Assembly (NCBI GenBank): GCA_016182235.1
Contig: JACOXT010000004.1
Span: forward strand, 28,537-92,536
Direction of reading: 5' to 3'
DNA from: Candidatus Levyibacteriota bacterium
GTDB lineage: Bacteria > Patescibacteriota > Microgenomatia > Levybacterales > UBA12049
DNA length: 64,000 nucleotides
Every line of letters starts with the position of its first letter. Positions within the stretch are counted from its first letter, which is position 1. The position numbers and the translations under genes are program-made. Positions 17,765 to 57,499 of the stretch are shown piece after piece. The notes beneath the pieces were generated by a model. The model did not search any database. It was given only the letters and a program-made list of their open reading frames with translations, and was not told the DNA's origin.

Positions 17765-18097
17765 TTAATTTGACCCCAAAAGCTTTATTCCAAAAAATCC
17801 TCCTAAAAGACTTAATATAAATATTGTGAAGAAGATAACAAGTAACCCAATAATCGCGTATCTTAATCTTTCTCTGCCGTGAGCGAATCTTTCTTTATCT
17901 CCTCCTGATGTCATCATGTTGAATCCTGCAAGGAAGATGCTATAAACAGAAAAAATAAGCGCAGCAAGAATCAAAAATTCGATGACAACAGCAATGATAT
18001 TTTGGCCTCTTGGGAAAAGCCCGCCAGTCGGCACACCAGTTGGCAAGCCGATATCTATATTCGGAAATCCCGGTATTGAAAACGCAATCTTTTCCAT
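17765..18097 (-). CDS. T4SS pilin-like protein, paralog 3
   Basis: Carries the motif LAGFNMMTSGGDKERFAHGRERLRYAIIGLLVI. Confidence 0.65.
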   Translation of the reverse strand: MEKIAFSIPGFPNIDIGLPTGVPTGGLFPRGQNIIAVVIEFLILAALIFSVYSIFLAGFNMMTSGGDKERFAHGRERLRYAIIGLLVIFFTIFILSLLGGFFGIKLLGSN

Positions 18098-18098
18098 A

Positions 18099-18195
18099 TG
18101 ATTAATGATTGATGATTTCTGATTAATGAAAAAAATAATTATATTTTCTCAATTCTATATTCTTAAATCTTTAATCATTAATCTTAAATCAATTC
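18099..18195. repeat. Inverted pair of heptamer arrays forming a hairpin between two pilin genes
   Basis: The left arm is TGATTAA/TGATTGA/TGATTTC/TGATTAA (18099-18126). The right arm is TCTTAAA/TCTTTAA/TCATTAA/TCTTAAA/TCAATTC (18161-18195). The arms are mutually complementary. Confidence 0.8.
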
Positions 18196-22026: not shown

Positions 22027-22089
22027 TTTCTACCTTCCATCTTCAACCCTCAAAGTACTATCTTCTACCTTCTACTTTCTATCGTCTAA
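22027..22089. repeat. Pyrimidine-rich heptamer array (9 units), right arm, inverted relative to 21584-21646
   Basis: The units are TTTCTAC CTTCCAT CTTCAAC CCTCAAA GTACTAT CTTCTAC CTTCTAC TTTCTAT CGTCTAA. The reverse complement aligns unit by unit with the left arm at roughly 75% identity. Confidence 0.85.
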
Positions 22090-22202
22090 TCTCTGTCAGG
22101 TTCGCGGTCAGAAAAAAGTCAAGCTATTTAAGGAGTTTGGGAGTAGACTGCGGGCCATGATCCTTCGACAAGCTCAGGATCATACTGAACGGAGTTGAAC
22201 GT

Positions 22203-25549: not shown

Positions 25550-27172
25550 TTAACGAAACATGCGTTTGAGTACTCCTTGTATTCCTTCAGCCTTAGTAGG
25601 AGAAGGCAATTTAGATTTATAGGCAACTATTGTCCCTACAGTTTCCCTACCTATTCCAATCGCACCTCCGACTGGTGCAAAAGCAGATCCGGTCTCAACC
25701 TTTGGAGCCTTGAGCATAGCTTTGAGCATGTTGACGACATTCGGCGTCATAAGAATAATGCCAAGCCCAATTAAAGCTCCGATATGATCTTCGTTGGCGC
25801 GGGCTCCAATAAGAGGAGGAACGAACAAGGTATTTTCCGGAAATCCGCCAAAAGCTGCCATAAATACTTTTCCAAGTAAAAACATGGCAATTACAGCAGG
25901 AAATGCGGCGAGATTTGCGATCAAATCTCGGAACCATCCTCCAACATTTATCGGACTTCCAGGAATTAATCCGCCAATAATCCAAAATGGTGCTAAGATA
26001 ACATCAATTAATATATGAACATAAGCAAAAAGAAGAGTAAACCAAAGTCTAAAAAGAGCAATTAAAAGTGCAATTGAGATTATTATAAAAGCAAGAAATC
26101 CAACAAACGTACCTAGTACTACGTGAAGCATTTTGAATAGTATATCTGCAACTGCATTTGTTGCTACATTTTCTATATTGGTAATCCAATTAAGAGGGTT
26201 CCACCATGTGCCTCCTTCGCCTGCACCAGGAAGAGCCACACCAACAACTACTTTAGACACAAATGTAGAAAAACTATTTAAAAAAGGGTCATAAAAATTT
26301 GCAAGAACTTCACTAATTGCTAGAGAAGGTTCTTCTATAAGCCTCCACATTCCACCATAAGCATTTCCTCCTCCTGCGCCAACTTCTGCTGCTGCTGAGA
26401 AAGGATTAGTTTTTTGTGAAAGTTGCGTAGGAAGACTTTTGTCTAATCCAGCGGAATCAACAATAAGATTACCAATTACATGAGTTGATACATACATCAT
26501 GTCTATCAAAAACCCCGCTATAGCATAGGAAAAAGTTACAAGAAGTATGCCGATTATAATTTTGGGTATCTGGTTTTGGATAGACATTACAGTTCTAGGA
26601 TCAATTTTTACTCTAAGCATAATTGCGAGTCCTATAACAACAAATACCAAAACAAAGAAAAGATAAACGATATTTCTAAATCCTTCCCACACCCTTAGAA
26701 GTGGTTTAAGTCCTTCAAACCCAGTTCCTGTTTGAGCATAAGCTATTTTTGAAATACCGAAATTCTGCGCCAGATATTGAAAATAGTCGCCGGTACGAAG
26801 AGGGGGAGTATAAAGAGAGGCTATCAAATTGTTCATTCCTCCAATTGCTCCTCCAATCTCTCCTTTTTCCAAATCCCCTTTTGGCAAAAAACCAATTTTT
26901 CCTGTTTTCGGATCAGCTCCAAGGCAGGTGCCTTTGGGATTTGTAGGATCAATGCCTGAAATCTGGCAGGAAAGCGCGCTTGCTACCTCAATCATCACAG
27001 TCTGAGTCCAGTTATGTAAGTTATTTGGAACTTCGGGGTTGGTATTGGGAGGTGGAGGATTTATTCGGGGAAGCTCTTGAGCATTGACTGAAGTAGGAAG
27101 TAGGAAGTATGAAGTAAGAAGTAAGAGAGCAGAGAAAATGAAAACAAAAAGGAGTCGGGCAGGAATTTTCAT
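25550..27172 (-). CDS. VirB6/TrbL-like polytopic membrane protein
   Basis: 540 aa with a signal peptide and then at least 6 TM helices. The size and topology match T4SS channel subunits found next to VirB4 in Gram-positive/CPR loci. The assignment rests on context and topology only. Confidence 0.5.
   Translation of the reverse strand: MKIPARLLFVFIFSALLLLTSYFLLPTSVNAQELPRINPPPPNTNPEVPNNLHNWTQTVMIEVASALSCQISGIDPTNPKGTCLGADPKTGKIGFLPKGDLEKGEIGGAIGGMNNLIASLYTPPLRTGDYFQYLAQNFGISKIAYAQTGTGFEGLKPLLRVWEGFRNIVYLFFVLVFVVIGLAIMLRVKIDPRTVMSIQNQIPKIIIGILLVTFSYAIAGFLIDMMYVSTHVIGNLIVDSAGLDKSLPTQLSQKTNPFSAAAEVGAGGGNAYGGMWRLIEEPSLAISEVLANFYDPFLNSFSTFVSKVVVGVALPGAGEGGTWWNPLNWITNIENVATNAVADILFKMLHVVLGTFVGFLAFIIISIALLIALFRLWFTLLFAYVHILIDVILAPFWIIGGLIPGSPINVGGWFRDLIANLAAFPAVIAMFLLGKVFMAAFGGFPENTLFVPPLIGARANEDHIGALIGLGIILMTPNVVNMLKAMLKAPKVETGSAFAPVGGAIGIGRETVGTIVAYKSKLPSPTKAEGIQGVLKRMFR
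27090..27124. repeat. Heptamer array GAAGTAG x5 inside the VirB6-like signal-peptide region
   Basis: The units are GAAGTAG GAAGTAG GAAGTAT GAAGTAA GAAGTAA. On the minus strand they are translated as LLLTSYFLLPTS. Confidence 0.85.
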
Positions 27173-27526: not shown

Positions 27527-27613
27527 CGGTGAGGGAGGGATTCGGACCCTCGATAGTCTTACGACTATGCACGCTCTCCAAGCGTGTCGATTCAACCGCT
27601 CTCGCACCTCACC
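27527..27613 (-). tRNA. tRNA-Ser(GGA)
   Basis: The acceptor is GGTGAGG/CCTCACC and the anticodon stem-loop is CACGC-TTGGAGA-GCGTG. It has a long variable arm and the T-loop GGTCCGAATCC. CCA is not encoded. Confidence 0.85.
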
Positions 27614-28052
27614 TTATTATTTTTTTGGCTTCTTGCCAAACTTTTTTGTCCGATGGGTAAGTCAGTCTTTTTTCAACCACATCTATTGGCAGCCATTCAA
27701 CATTTTCCATCTCCAGATCATGCTTACTTATATCGCCAGAAACATATTTCATTAGAAAATAATACACTTTTTTCTTGATTGTCTCATTCTGAAATTTAAA
27801 CCAATATTCTACCGGAGTTAGAGCCTTAATAATTTTCGCATCAACTCCTGTTTCTTCTCTGACTTCCCTAAGTGCTGCTTCCTCTTTTGTTTCTCTTCTT
27901 GATTCCTGATTCCTAATTCCTGATTCCTTCTTATCGATTAATCCTTTTGGAAAAACCCATCCATGATGTTGAGAGTGCTGCGCAACCAAAATAAATGTCT
28001 GGCCACTTTCTTTTTTATAAACTACTCCTCCAGCTGAAAATTGAAATTTCAT
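27609..28052 (-). CDS. NUDIX hydrolase
   Basis: The Nudix box is split by an insert: FPKGLIDKKE-[SGIRNQESRR]-ETKEEAALREVREETG. The stop codon overlaps the tRNA-Ser(GGA) 5' end. Confidence 0.8.
   Translation of the reverse strand: MKFQFSAGGVVYKKESGQTFILVAQHSQHHGWVFPKGLIDKKESGIRNQESRRETKEEAALREVREETGVDAKIIKALTPVEYWFKFQNETIKKKVYYFLMKYVSGDISKHDLEMENVEWLPIDVVEKRLTYPSDKKVWQEAKKIIR
27899..27926. repeat. Heptamer array TGATTCC x4 inside the NUDIX gene
   Basis: The units are TGATTCC TGATTCC TAATTCC TGATTCC. Confidence 0.85.
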
Positions 28053-28054
28053 AG

Positions 28055-28129
28055 TGTCCCCGGCGGGAGTTGAACCCGCAAATCTTCAGGTTCGGAACCT
28101 GACGCTCTATCCAATTGAACTACGAGGAC
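28055..28129 (-). tRNA. tRNA-Arg(CCG)
   Basis: GTCCTCGTAGTTCAATTGGATAGAGCGTCAGGTTCCGAACCTGAAGATTTGCGGGTTCAACTCCCGCCGGGGACA. The anticodon loop is TTCCGAA. Confidence 0.85.
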
Positions 28130-28136
28130 TCCAATG

Positions 28137-28222
28137 CGGAGAGAGTGAGATTCGAACTCACGGTCGCCTAAGGCGACAGCGGTTTTCGAAACCGCCGCAC
28201 TCGTCCACTATGCGATCTCTCC
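28137..28222 (-). tRNA. tRNA-Ser(CGA)
   Basis: The acceptor is GGAGAGA/TCTCTCC and the anticodon loop is TTCGAAA. It has a long variable arm and the T-arm GTGAGTTCGAATCTCAC. Confidence 0.85.
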
Positions 28223-28241
28223 CATTTTCGACTTTCTTTGG

Positions 28242-28314
28242 TGTGCCCGGTGGGAGTTGAACCCGCAATCGCTGGGTCCGCAACCCAGTGCTCTATCCAT
28301 TAAGCTACGGGCAC
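28242..28314 (-). tRNA. tRNA-Arg(GCG), with a C-A mismatch in the T stem
   Basis: GTGCCCGTAGCTTAATGGATAGAGCACTGGGTTGCGGACCCAGCGATTGCGGGTTCAACTCCCACCGGGCACA. The anticodon loop is TTGCGGA. Confidence 0.7.
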
Positions 28315-28315
28315 A

Positions 28316-28432
28316 GAGAGTAGAAAACAGAAAGTAAAAAGCTGAAGGTAGATTATTGGAAATGTTTAACTCCATCCTCTAGCTTCTATCATCAAAATAC
28401 TATCTTCTACCTTCCATCTTCCACCGTCTATT
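28316..28432. repeat. Heptamer-array hairpin without cargo (6 purine-rich units, 12-nt spacer, 9 pyrimidine-rich units)
   Basis: The left arm is GAGAGTA GAAAACA GAAAGTA AAAAGCT GAAGGTA GATTATT (28316-28357). The right arm is CTCCATC CTCTAGC TTCTATC ATCAAAA TACTATC TTCTACC TTCCATC TTCCACC GTCTATT (28370-28432). The right arm closely matches the reverse complement of 21584-21646. Confidence 0.85.
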
Positions 28433-48509: not shown

Positions 48510-49616
48510 ATGAATCTGTCAACAATAGAAAAAGTTAATGTTTCCGGTAAAAGGGTTTTTGTGAGAGCGGATTTGGATGTTCCTCTTTCCGAGACACGAG
48601 ATTCGCAACACGAGACACGAAAAATTGAGGATGAGACGAGGTTGAGAGCTGTGATGCCGACAATTGAGTATCTTCTGGGGCATAGAGCAAAGGTTATTGT
48701 TGGAGGACATTTGGGGAGACCGGAAGGATTTGATAAGAGTTTAAGCCTTGAGCCAGTCGCGAAATGGTTAAGTATTAAGTATAAAGTATTAAGTATAAAG
48801 TATGGAAAACGCGGGGAATTTGACGGGTGGGAAATAACTCCAGATCTTTTCATTCTGGAGAACTTAAGATTTTATAAAGGCGAGGAGGCCAATGATCTTA
48901 ATTTTGCAAAAAAACTGTCAAGCTTGGCAGACGTTTATGTTAACGACGCGTTTGCGATGTCGCATAGAAATCATGCCTCAATTGTCGGGATAACAAAATT
49001 TCTGCCTCATTATGCTGGTTTTCATTTGGCAAAAGAAATAGAAATGTTAGGTAAAGCTATGGATAATCCAAAGAGACCGCTTGTTGTAATTATAGGAGGC
49101 AAAAAAATTGAAACTAAGCTTCCGTTAGTTCATAGGATGCATGAAATTGCCGACTATGTGCTTGTTGGGGGAAAAATTGCCCAAGAATCCAAAGTTCTTC
49201 TGAAAGAACAGCACTCAAAATTAACCGGAAAGAAATCAGTGCTTTTAGTTGCAGATTCCAACAGTGACAAGTCAGACATAACAGAACAAGATGCTGAAAA
49301 TTTTTTGCAAATCATTAATACAGCGCGTACTGTTATTTGGAATGGAAGTATGGGGATAATAAGTGAAAAGCGAAAAGTGAAAAGCGAAAAGAATGATACA
49401 GAGAGGGGAACGCGCTTGATCGCTAAGGGCATTATGGAGAGCGGCGCTTATTCTGTGGTTGGCGGAGGAGATACGGTTGAATTTTTAAATAAACTGGGAA
49501 TTTTAGATAAATTTTCTTTTACCTCAACAGGCGGAGGAGCAATGCTAGCGTTTTTAAGTGGTGAAAAACTTCCAGGCATCGAAGCCCTGTTAAATAACGG
49601 GCTATATCACGCTTAA
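48510..49616 (+). CDS. pgk: Phosphoglycerate kinase, with three in-frame heptamer-array inserts
   Basis: Motifs are VRADLDVPL, LENLRFYKGEE, FAMSHRNHAS, GGKKIETKL, WNGSMG and GGGD(T). Inserts lie at 48591-48618, 48769-48803 and 49361-49388. Confidence 0.9.
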   Translation: MNLSTIEKVNVSGKRVFVRADLDVPLSETRDSQHETRKIEDETRLRAVMPTIEYLLGHRAKVIVGGHLGRPEGFDKSLSLEPVAKWLSIKYKVLSIKYGKRGEFDGWEITPDLFILENLRFYKGEEANDLNFAKKLSSLADVYVNDAFAMSHRNHASIVGITKFLPHYAGFHLAKEIEMLGKAMDNPKRPLVVIIGGKKIETKLPLVHRMHEIADYVLVGGKIAQESKVLLKEQHSKLTGKKSVLLVADSNSDKSDITEQDAENFLQIINTARTVIWNGSMGIISEKRKVKSEKNDTERGTRLIAKGIMESGAYSVVGGGDTVEFLNKLGILDKFSFTSTGGGAMLAFLSGEKLPGIEALLNNGLYHA

Positions 49617-56416: not shown

Positions 56417-57499
56417 ATGATTCGGGTTGCGATTAATGGATATGGAAGGATAGGCAGAGTTGCTCACAGAGTAATTTTGGAAAAGCATTCCTCAGAAATT
56501 GATGTTGTTGCTATAAATGCCGGTTCTTCTACTGATATAAAAGGATGGATGTACCTGCTTCGGTATGATTCTTCGTATGGAATACTTCAGAATCATACCT
56601 TGAATTTCCAATTTCCAATTTCCAATTTCCAATCAAATCAAAATAATCAATTTTCAAATGTTCAAAATAGAGATGACTATATTGGCTCACTTATCATTGA
56701 CAGCAAAAAGATTCCGGTATTTTCGCAGAAGGACCCGAGTCTTTTGCCTTGGCGAGATTTAAATGTCGACGTAGTCATTGAGTCAACCGGGCATTTTACC
56801 ACAGAAGAAAAGCTTAAGACTCATATTACAGCTGGAGCGAAAAAGGTACTTTTGTCAGCTCCGGCAAAAGGTGGAGAAGTTTCGACTTATGTCCTCTCGG
56901 TCAATGATAAGGATTATAAAGGAGAGTCTCTTATAAATAATGCCTCATGTACAACAAATTGTATTGCGCCAGTTGCTAAGATAATGGTTGCTAATTTTGG
57001 AGTGGAGAAGGCAATGATGACGACAATTCATGGCTATACATCTGACCAAAGACTCCAAGACGGGGGGCATAAAGACTACAGGCGTGCGCGGGCGGCAGGA
57101 GAAAATATTGTTCCAACATCAACCGGAGCAACAATCGCGGCAAGTGAAGGAGTTCCGGAGCTTAAGGGAATATTTTCTGGATTGGCAATTAGAGTTCCGG
57201 TTCCGGTTGGGTCACTTTCGGATTTTACCTTTCTTCTTAAAAAAAATACAACTGTTGAAGAGATAAATGAAGTAATGAGAAGCGAAGCTCAAAATCCTAC
57301 ATATAATGGTATATTAGAAGTAACAGAAGATCCAATTGTTTCTTCAGATATAATCGGTAACTCTCACTCCTCAATCGTTGATTTGTCTCTTACTCAAGTT
57401 GTCGGCGGAAACATGGCTAAAGTTATTGCCTGGTATGACAACGAGTATGGATATGCAAATAGATTGGTGGAAGAAGTAGTTATGGTTGGAAAATCATAG
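56417..57499 (+). CDS. gap: Glyceraldehyde-3-phosphate dehydrogenase, with an in-frame heptamer-array insert
   Basis: Motifs are INGYGRIGR, the catalytic SCTTNC, WYDNEYGY. An insert of about 25 aa (LNFQFPISNFQSNQNNQFSNVQN) follows LLRYDSSYG. Confidence 0.9.
   Translation: MIRVAINGYGRIGRVAHRVILEKHSSEIDVVAINAGSSTDIKGWMYLLRYDSSYGILQNHTLNFQFPISNFQSNQNNQFSNVQNRDDYIGSLIIDSKKIPVFSQKDPSLLPWRDLNVDVVIESTGHFTTEEKLKTHITAGAKKVLLSAPAKGGEVSTYVLSVNDKDYKGESLINNASCTTNCIAPVAKIMVANFGVEKAMMTTIHGYTSDQRLQDGGHKDYRRARAAGENIVPTSTGATIAASEGVPELKGIFSGLAIRVPVPVGSLSDFTFLLKKNTTVEEINEVMRSEAQNPTYNGILEVTEDPIVSSDIIGNSHSSIVDLSLTQVVGGNMAKVIAWYDNEYGYANRLVEEVVMVGKS
56604..56668. repeat. Heptamer array ATTTCCA x4, then degenerate (A/T)TCAAAT-like units, inside gap
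   Basis: ATTTCCA is exact four times (56604-56631). The 7-nt periodicity then continues in degenerate form to about 56668. Confidence 0.85.

Follow-up and report, generated by a model that had tools for sequence, protein, structure and literature searches.

Heptanucleotide tandem arrays in the phosphoglycerate kinase gene of a Candidatus Levybacteria genome

The phosphoglycerate kinase (PGK) gene, pgk, found in a 64,000-nt stretch of DNA (the window, i.e. the whole stretch that was analysed) contains three tandem arrays of 7-nt units, all of which are translated in frame. The window originates from a metagenome-assembled genome (MAG) of Candidatus Levybacteria, a Microgenomates lineage of the candidate phyla radiation (CPR). 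We consider it probable (roughly 0.75) that such arrays arise by heptamer-biased slippage, which selection filters to 21-nt steps in permissive loops of the enzyme. The pgk loci used for comparison (L numbers) were taken from species-representative genomes, metagenomes, and contigs encoding individual homologues. The open reading frame (ORF) maps of these loci are crude, greedy longest-ORF calls, and the metagenome-derived PGKs, most of which are distant, served solely as a control set.

Sequence, position, and predicted structure of the three arrays

Tandem Repeats Finder located array 1 at 48590-48620 (period 7, 4.4 copies, 66% matches), array 2 at 48768-48803 (5.1 copies, 89% matches), and array 3 at 49361-49391 (4.4 copies, 87% matches), the latter two reaching 100% matches at period 14. 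Together with the uninterrupted ORF (Table 1), these results confirm the three in-frame arrays that an initial annotation of the window had placed in pgk. The translation of the gene includes SETRDSQHETRK, LSIKYKVLSIKYG, and SEKRKVKSEKN at the three arrays, respectively. All three consist of head-to-tail 7-nt units in at least three copies, which is the definition of heptamer repeats of the short tandemly repeated repetitive (STRR) type. Array 1 is degenerate at lag 7 and perfect over 9 nt at lag 21, i.e. GAGACACGA occurs twice, 21 nt apart, with decayed units in between. Taken alone, this array falls below the threshold of our own array scorer (see below), and it was accepted as real because orthologues have cleaner arrays at those codons.

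The identity of the gene is clear. Pfam PF00162 was assigned to its product and to all of its homologue matches, and the product is 100% identical to an NCBI 'Candidatus Levybacteria' phosphoglycerate kinase and matches solved PGKs at E 1e-68 in a PDB sequence search. Its AlphaFold (AF2) model has a mean predicted local distance difference test score (pLDDT) of 87.8 and a template modelling (TM) score of 0.80 against both the E. coli and B. anthracis PGKs. The invariant residues R19, D21, R44, H67-R70, R120, H152-R153, and GGGD318-321 are all kept; a full-length match with the substrate-binding motifs retained, the protein belongs to the PGK family and fold. The PGKs of Levybacteria and of loci L006 and L007 are short (340-380 aa) because two segments of the C-terminal domain found in other bacterial PGKs, one of ~15 residues after GGK(I)A and one of ~20 residues before the nucleotide-binding region, are absent (alignment A4, columns 257-320).

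The initial annotation had described all three arrays as insertions in short loops, a view that alignment to distant PGKs bears out for sites 1 and 3 and contradicts for site 2, where there is no gain in length. Site 1 is 7 residues longer than its counterpart in all distant PGKs compared (7 to 8 residues against the PGKs of Bacillus and array-free CPR PGKs), and it was modelled as a protruding beta-hairpin (strands 26-31 and 34-39, pLDDT ~70-79). Site 3 exceeds that of L119 (agt gaa aaa gaa gat) by 21 nt and those of distant PGKs by 8 residues (7 to 8 over the Bacillus and array-free CPR PGKs), and was modelled as a coil with a pLDDT of <50 at residues 288-291. The alignments and the model together indicate that sites 1 and 3 are true insertions, forming a predicted surface hairpin and a low-confidence coil, respectively.

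The segment at site 2 is equal in length to, or shorter than, its counterpart in other PGKs (the non-repeat counterpart being KEMLKPVQHDTGKTK), and in the model it comprises the last part of helix 81-90, the turn that follows, and strand 97-101 (block pLDDT 94). Because it is no longer than in other PGKs and is confidently modelled, site 2 does not qualify as a short-loop insert. A TAA stop codon would fall in the pgk frame if the TTAAGTA array were perfect; a T>A change in unit 3 abolishes it, and this change is common to the window, L001, and L119. The three genes also have in common the peptide SIKYKVLSIKY; the first residue of the array peptide is F in L119 instead of L, and apart from this residue the differences are confined to synonymous Ile codons. 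On the evidence of the alignment and the model, site 2 is an old array that is now built into the fold and is under purifying selection.

Table 1. Coordinates of pgk, its heptamer arrays, and other period-7 arrays (window positions, except where a locus is named)
Feature	Position	Strand	Sequence and remarks
pgk ORF, phosphoglycerate kinase	48510-49616	+	368 aa; uninterrupted; hosts all three period-7 arrays
Array 1 (site 1)	48591-48620	+	GAGACAC GAGATTC GCAACAC GAGACAC GA; peptide ETRDSQHETR; 21-nt (7-aa) insertion after DVPLS
Array 2 (site 2)	48768-48803	+	TTAAGTA TTAAGTA TAAAGTA TTAAGTA TAAAGTA T; peptide LSIKYKVLSIKY; not an insertion
Array 3 (site 3)	49361-49391	+	AGTGAAA AGCGAAA AGTGAAA AGCGAAA AG; peptide SEKRKVKSEK; 21-nt insertion after WNGSMGII
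Site-3 array of L030 pgk	10921-10951 of L030		AAATGGC AAATGGC AAAT
gap array	56603-56633	+	AATTTCC x4.4, perfect; in GAPDH ORF 56417-57499; encodes NFQFPISNFQ after YDSSYG
NUDIX hydrolase array	27896-27928	-	TTCCTGA-type; gene 27609-28052; encodes ESGIRNQES
GAAGTAG array	27090-27126	-	x4.9 (sense CTACTTC); in 540-aa ORF 25550-27172
Inverted pair of GATTNNN heptamer arrays	18097-18191	.	Intergenic; between two genes with type IV secretion system (T4SS)-pilin domains
TTCTACC array	22028-22088	.	Intergenic; degenerate; 7.7 copies, 68% matches; ~115 nt upstream of 1099-aa ORF
Two degenerate arrays	28313-28430	.	ACAGAAAGTAGAAA x2.9 and ATCTTCC x3.1; adjoin three-tRNA cluster

Seven-residue steps and recent turnover among relatives

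Loop lengths were measured in the best 120 PGK homologues. The loop between DVPL and DDTR (site 1) falls into two length classes, one of 6-7 residues (52 proteins) and one of 13-15 residues (42 proteins), with other values in only 3. The loop after GHLGRP, which carries no array in the window pgk, has 7-8 residues in 81 proteins and 13-14 in 21, and the loop after WNGxMG (site 3) passes from 10-11 to 17-18 residues. Within the longer loop classes, the residue identity at lag 7 is 0.23-0.27, as against 0.02-0.11 across lags 3-10. From these length jumps and the lag-7 identity, it follows that the loops change by 7 residues, i.e. by three heptamers read in three frames.

Codon alignment at site 1 resolves the step at the nucleotide level. 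The insert-free allele of L121 reads tcc GAAAGCC GA agc, and six lineages (the window, L119, L120, L002, L003, and L004) have four heptamers plus GA, which is exactly 21 nt more than L121. In each of the six, the units match that lineage's own first unit: GAGACAC in the window, GAAACAC/GGGACAC in L119, GAAATTC in L120, GAAGGGG/AAAGCGG in L002, GAAGTCG in L003, and GAAGTTA/GAGGTCA in L004. The unit is AAGTATG in L001, the closest relative compared (73% identity). The initial annotation had derived array 1 from the downstream DETR codons; the insert-free L121 and the six four-heptamer lineages instead place the seed in the local S-E-(S/T)-R codons, so that this part of the proposal fails, whereas slippage with local seeding as such fits the data. 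At site 3, the sequence CGCAAGC CACAAGT CAAAAGC CAAAAG of L121 corresponds to GAAAAGC GAAAAGT GAAAAGC GAAAAG in the window, the first base being different in all four units and the C/T alternation at the last base being common to both. These sequences indicate that the arrays are homogenised internally or repeatedly re-created, a concerted behaviour rather than the simple decay of one ancient insertion.

Turnover is also evident among much closer relatives. Within protein clusters formed at 90% identity, site 1 is present, absent, or different among PGKs that are otherwise 93-99% identical, the variants being SKSGIQDSEFR, SESGVNSSGLE, AKSGVRGSEFG, and absence of the segment. The pgk genes of L123 and L124 are 96.3% identical and have one 21-nt indel at site 1, where L123 reads tcg GAGTTCG GA gta and L124 reads tcg AAGTCCG GAATTCA GGATTCG GAATTCA GA gta. 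At site 1, the 99.6% identical pgk genes of L127 and L128 are distinguished by an insertion of 45 nt that has GCCATCA units at its flanks; the same two loci differ by a 21-nt indel (3 x CAATTAA) within the ORF for pyruvate phosphate dikinase (PPDK), and over 6.9 kb of shared sequence these two and one 3-nt indel are the only indels inside ORFs. Copy differences by multiples of the unit between close relatives, as in STRR repeats, therefore comprise the 21-nt indels of L123/L124/L125 and of the L127/L128 PPDK gene and the 7 additional nucleotides of L030.

The last of these cases concerns the frame. A one-unit change had been expected in the initial annotation to frameshift pgk, and such an allele was found in L030 (Levyibacteriota MAG JBDRBE010000003), in which pgk is frameshifted at site 3 by one extra AAATGGC. 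When one unit is deleted, the frame is restored (...GIINGKLIGDDTEMGTKRIAE...) through to the normal stop codon. The extra unit also introduces an in-frame ATG, in principle a possible start for separate synthesis of the C-terminal 70-odd residues.

Two further observations concern pgk variation. In L005, a Levybacteria-like MAG, the pgk gene contains an in-frame TAA (L005:9225-9240, RP*VVIIGG) where all homologues have Leu, which could represent a pseudogene or a sequencing error. In two pairs of PGKs that are near-identical or belong to the same 90% cluster (P0014 and P0155, P0007 and P0017), the site-3 segments and their flanks are wholly different (alignments A1 and A3), a pattern that, at the sequence level, suggests recombinational exchange of loop alleles between strains.

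Period-7 arrays in the rest of the window and in other loci

Arrays were scored from self-identity runs at each lag (match +1, mismatch -2, score >=11), a procedure in which detection depends on the threshold. The window contains 8 period-7 arrays, compared with 0.05 expected from dinucleotide-preserving shuffles, and any other period from 4 to 22 yielded 0-3 arrays each. Five of the period-7 arrays lie inside ORFs, as against 0.02 after codon shuffling within genes, and three are intergenic, corresponding to densities of 0.085 per kb inside and 0.57 per kb outside ORFs (~7-fold). Period 7 is the sole over-represented repeat period in the window, and the excess anticipated in the initial annotation is present across the window.

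The perfect array in gap, the gene for GAPDH, has an identical AATTTCC counterpart in the gap gene of L003, and those of L122 and L121 carry other heptamer arrays (TCAAAGT and others) at that same site; more distant gap genes that were compared have no array there. Within the Nudix box itself, the G-x5-E loop is made longer by the NUDIX array (PKGLIDKKESGIRNQESRRETKEEAALREVREETG). The GAAGTAG array codes for LLLLTSYFLLPTS, which is the hydrophobic core of a signal peptide predicted for a 540-aa ORF (ALLLLTSYFLLPTSVNA). The initial annotation had listed arrays in these three genes, which holds for gap and NUDIX; its 'VirB6-like' label for the third was dropped, since Pfam gave no family. It had also counted four intergenic hairpin arms. 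We found one clear inverted pair only, with arms of 34 nt each (18097-18130 and 18153-18186) that are 76% complementary, and a hairpin function was rejected because the predicted fold is no more stable than shuffled sequences (z -1.1). The three tRNA genes next to the last two arrays of Table 1 (Arg-CCG, Ser-CGA, and Arg-GCG) occupy 28054-28314 on the minus strand. Stretches of ~35 nt at 22058-22090 and 28396-28430 are alike (tactatcttctaccttc...cgtcta) and have a heptamer substructure; on this similarity, the pair may represent a dispersed repeat or an element associated with promoters.

Levybacteria-like loci have a period-7 array density similar to that of the window, their own pgk genes included, and no period-7 arrays were found in the Roizmanbacteria, Paceibacteria, and Saccharibacteria loci of the same set. 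The excess is peculiar neither to this genome and the CPR nor to the heterocystous cyanobacteria that the initial annotation names: 854 kb of unrelated PGK neighbourhoods, many of high GC content, contain 47 period-7 arrays, compared with 1-13 for each other period. The arrays in these diverse neighbourhoods are nearly all intergenic and often form inverted pairs. Heptamers dominate the tandem repeats in the high-GC, non-CPR metagenome contigs L061, L063, L068, L082, L102, L109, and L110, where inverted pairs of one unit include CAGGTGT / CTGACAC (L110) and AGTAATG / ACTCATC (L061).

With the crude ORF calls available for the loci, array density is ~7-8 times higher outside ORFs, and 45 of 88 arrays are inside them; about half of the arrays are thus coding despite the lower density because the genomes are ~90% coding. 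Lengths of 30-34 nt were found for 26 of 45 coding arrays and 11 of 38 intergenic arrays (p = 0.014). In the low-GC loci, there are 31 distinct sense-strand units among the 45 coding arrays and 29 among the 38 intergenic arrays, and the diversity of the coding units means that no sequence-specific element such as TAACTGA or GGGAATC is involved. In coding arrays, unlike intergenic ones, identity does not decay over lag.

Several other explanations were tried and rejected. An assembly artefact is excluded by the occurrence of arrays at the same sites in dozens of independent assemblies (NCBI, JGI, ENA, and Logan). A protein-level 7-residue repeat is not the primary cause, because the DNA itself is 7-nt periodic within each 21 nt (e.g. 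AATTTCC x4.4). The units showed no signal of stop-codon avoidance, as 19 of 45 consensus coding units would give a sense-strand stop if perfect, near the 36% for random genomic heptamers; real coding arrays evade stops through single variant units. A general preference for period 14 likewise found no support, lag 14 beating lag 7 in 11 coding arrays and losing in 13.

A different kind of insert occurs in the same PGK and GAPDH loops, i.e. GC-rich palindromic or hairpin mini-inserts that are in frame and often lie within heptamer arrays. They were observed at L044:121-132 and 558-570, at pgk site 1 of L039 and L030, in gap of L002 (~12100), at pgk site 3 of L004, and at L127:4820-4864; examples are CCGCCAGCTGGCGG, CCCGCCTGCCA...TGGCGGGCAGG (encoding RLPTPGTGGQ), and GGGAACAAAAATTTTC...GAAAATTTTGTTCCC. 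One of them, of 45 nt, is found in one but not the other of two pgk genes that share 99.6% identity. Their sequences suggest that these mini-inserts form a class of their own, made up of small selfish elements inserted in frame. The window segment 22162-22179 (CCTTCGACAAGCTCAGGA) resembles the core CCTTCGACTCCGCTCAGGA of the 45-nt L127 insert, and the CCTTCGAC...CTCAGGA core matched only this one place in the window and two further fetched loci (L064 and L122). The heptamer arrays themselves lack the dispersed copies, inverted ends, and foreign flanks of mobile mini-elements (MITE-, REP-, or RPE-like); they are not such elements, because their units are diverse, repeat in direct orientation, and carry on the local codons. 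The separate GC-rich hairpin inserts of the relatives may belong in that category.

Origin of the arrays and relation to known repeats

The reading that we favour regards the arrays as heptanucleotide microsatellites, i.e. STRR-like long simple sequence repeats (LSSRs), that would be made and resized by slipped-strand mispairing in DNA synthesis, with a strong bias to 7-nt steps in the Levybacteria lineage and many others. The GA...GA microhomology, 7 nt apart in insert-free site-1 alleles, would suffice for the first slip. Any copy number would be viable in non-coding DNA, and in genes only net three-unit changes (21 nt, 7 codons) would pass; because an in-frame change requires three units, coding arrays are expected to consist of the native heptamer seed plus three copies, i.e. 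~4.4 units or 30-34 nt. A coding array would then be read in all three frames in turn, giving the 7-residue peptide periodicity. A second filter, that of place, would leave survivors in permissive PGK loops, namely those after strand A (site 1), after GHLGRP, and after WNGxMG (site 3). The 30-34-nt clustering of coding arrays and their ~7-8-fold depletion in ORFs are consistent with the two filters. These sites would 'breathe' by 21-nt gain and loss and by homogenisation of units within the array, which accounts for the different units at orthologous sites in different lineages. Now and then, an array would be frozen into the fold and evolve as ordinary coding sequence, as site 2 may have done. 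The period-7 excess, the in-frame position, the 7-residue quantum, the 21-nt polymorphism between close strains, the one-unit frameshift allele, the depletion in ORFs, and the diversity of units were observed directly; the slippage mechanism, the neutral character of the inserts, and the number of events behind a gain of 21 nt are inferred.

Several points weigh against this reading. Simple slippage would not be expected to turn one unit into four at once, and stepwise growth would pass through a frameshifted pgk; the transition may have occurred by a one-step multi-unit 'stutter', by fast succession via transient null alleles such as that of L030, or by recombinational import. The L030 frameshift could, for its part, be an assembly or consensus artefact. 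The L124 array is imperfect at 3.7% divergence from the insert-free L123, and may thus reflect loss or recombinational exchange instead of a fresh expansion. Two unit variants alternate, perfectly at period 14, in arrays 2 and 3 of the window and at site 1 of L119 and L002, which hints at 14-nt events or intra-array conversion beyond the simple model. Unit sharing within a locus exceeds that obtained by permutation (36 vs 21.3, p ~0.003), so that some copying of units between sites is possible on the sequence evidence. In addition, length variation was seen between consensus assemblies of strains, and the longest-ORF calls in the loci are crude.

A first alternative holds that diversifying selection maintains variable 7-residue segments in PGK and GAPDH loops that meet a host, a phage, or a partner, the microsatellites being the mutational device; by analogy, they would resemble contingency loci that alter a sequence instead of switching a gene off. 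In other bacteria, surface 'moonlighting' roles are known for PGK and GAPDH. Among the 93-99% identical proteins, no part of pgk varies more than site 1, the same PGK and GAPDH loops have been struck repeatedly, and the protein-level conservation of site 2 implies that array-derived peptides can matter. However, arrays are also found in the NUDIX and PPDK genes and in a signal peptide and are far denser intergenically, which is the expectation of a blind mutational process combined with purifying selection. At site 1, alleles lacking the insert are no rarer than those that have it (52 vs 42), the interaction partner and any secretion of the enzymes are hypothetical, and the moonlighting roles are those of other bacteria, making adaptive diversification unlikely.

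Alternatively, pre-formed arrays or small elements might be inserted by template switching, gene conversion, or a mobile mini-element instead of growing locally. One unit can indeed be found twice within a gene, as is GAAGTAT in the pgk of L001 and FKVQSSKFKV in P0036 (sites 1 and 2), or in different genes and species (AAAGTTC in L004 pgk, L122 gap, and an ORF of L016; GAATCAG in the window NUDIX gene and L003 pgk), and the above-permutation sharing of units and the GC-rich hairpin mini-inserts inside some arrays point in the same direction. Against such copying, the first and last units at site 1 continue the native S-E-x-R codons, the insertion there is always exactly 21 nt, with neither target duplication nor foreign flanks, the units are highly diverse (31 in 45 arrays), and the recurring ones are A/T-rich strings expected from composition and three-frame stop avoidance; we therefore regard import of ready-made arrays as quite improbable. 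Phase-variable (contingency) control, in which the arrays would serve as an on/off switch for pgk operated by slippage of one unit, would suit a unit length not divisible by three and the L030 pgk being out of frame by exactly one unit, but is very hard to credit, given that the arrays are short (4-5 units) and imperfect, so that slippage rates should be low, that 119 of 120 homologues among the matches listed are full-length, that pgk is a housekeeping gene and not a surface or restriction gene, and that like arrays occur in many unrelated genes. Each of the three alternatives covers part of the observations, but selection-filtered slippage agrees better with the excess in intergenic DNA, the seeding from local codons, the variety of units, and the preponderance of alleles that keep the frame.

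In anatomy and mechanism, the arrays are heptanucleotide simple sequence repeats (SSRs) of the STRR/LSSR kind, and the coding setting is the unusual part. Heptanucleotides are the most abundant class of long SSRs in most prokaryotic genomes, ~7 nt has been proposed as the stretch held by the polymerase, favouring slippage by 7 nt, and units divisible by three are those expected inside genes (Mrazek 2007, as summarised in PMC4679880 and PMC4692102). The present arrays share with prokaryotic heptamer SSRs, including the cyanobacterial STRR of Calothrix and Nostoc, the head-to-tail 7-nt units and the outstanding period 7, as well as the highest density in intergenic regions, the frequent inverted pairs, and the differences in length between close relatives. 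They differ from STRR (STRR1-3), the GGGAATC repeats of Xanthomonas, and the TAACTGA repeats of Beggiatoa, which have few genome-specific consensus units and are overwhelmingly intergenic: no such small set of consensus heptamers was found here, with 31 units in 45 arrays, and by the crude ORF calls about half of the arrays are in ORFs. Also distinctive with respect to STRR-type repeats are the conserved glycolytic enzymes affected, the 21-nt quantum, the recurrent loop hot spots, and the CPR host. TAACTGA repeats of Beggiatoaceae and cyanobacteria are direct repeats of 2-6 copies, some of which lie in ORFs as the three-frame peptide LSVISYQ (MacGregor 2015, PMC4679880); this single conserved unit is mostly located just upstream of start codons, and a regulatory role has been proposed (PMC4679880). 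Its in-ORF copies are at protein termini or in hypothetical proteins, whereas many local units inside conserved enzyme domains are found here.

The tandem repeats of Borgs have in-ORF units that are all divisible by three and form amino-acid repeats (PMC9879509). Growth inside ORFs without breaking them, fast evolution, and possibly disordered segments (here site 3) are common to both systems, but the present unit has 7 nt, of which only the 21-nt block is divisible by three, the frame being kept by three-unit steps alone, and the arrays are short and lie in core metabolic enzymes. Contingency loci, i.e. phase-variable SSRs such as those of Haemophilus (PMC2651432), resemble our arrays in having a non-triplet unit in a coding region and, with L030, a frameshifted allele. 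Instead of a long, near-perfect tract that switches a gene among strains, we found short tracts of 4-5 imperfect units in housekeeping genes, with mainly in-frame (21-nt) variation apart from L030. Rickettsia palindromic elements are in-frame selfish palindromic elements in protein genes, which similarly show that extra in-frame peptides are tolerated at the surface of conserved proteins. The GC-rich hairpin mini-inserts in the PGK and GAPDH loops of the relatives resemble them; the heptamer arrays, in contrast, are not palindromic, are not dispersed copies of one element, and have grown locally. In the literature searched, the coverage of which was incomplete, heptamer arrays are not described for CPR genomes, in line with the initial annotation, and neither is a 7-residue quantum in conserved enzymes.

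For decades, heptamer repeats have ranked as the most common long microsatellite of bacteria, yet they have been left unexplained and treated as an intergenic curiosity. Here, they are seen acting on essential enzymes, with a non-triplet repeat forced by selection into 21-nt quanta, and they leave a clean 7-residue signature in the loop lengths of >100 PGKs, together with strain polymorphism and a frameshifted intermediate. This provides a tractable natural system for asking how new loops and short segments enter conserved proteins and what sets the 7-nt slippage step. In practice, the arrays make sequences seem more divergent than they are, disrupt alignments at fixed sites, and can cause false pseudogene calls in CPR MAGs. 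More tentatively, heptamer 'stuttering' might be a major and ongoing source of protein novelty in Levybacteria and some other CPR lineages, supplying 7-residue cassettes, possibly by one three-unit event, at hot spots of core enzymes and other proteins (PGK, GAPDH, PPDK, the Nudix box, and signal peptides), which are turned over between strains and sometimes fixed in the fold, as at site 2. If this possibility, which we hold to be doubtful at present, proves true, a non-triplet microsatellite process would shape the essential proteins of reduced genomes, and the heptamer step would be a direct readout of the geometry of the replicative or repair machinery behind it.

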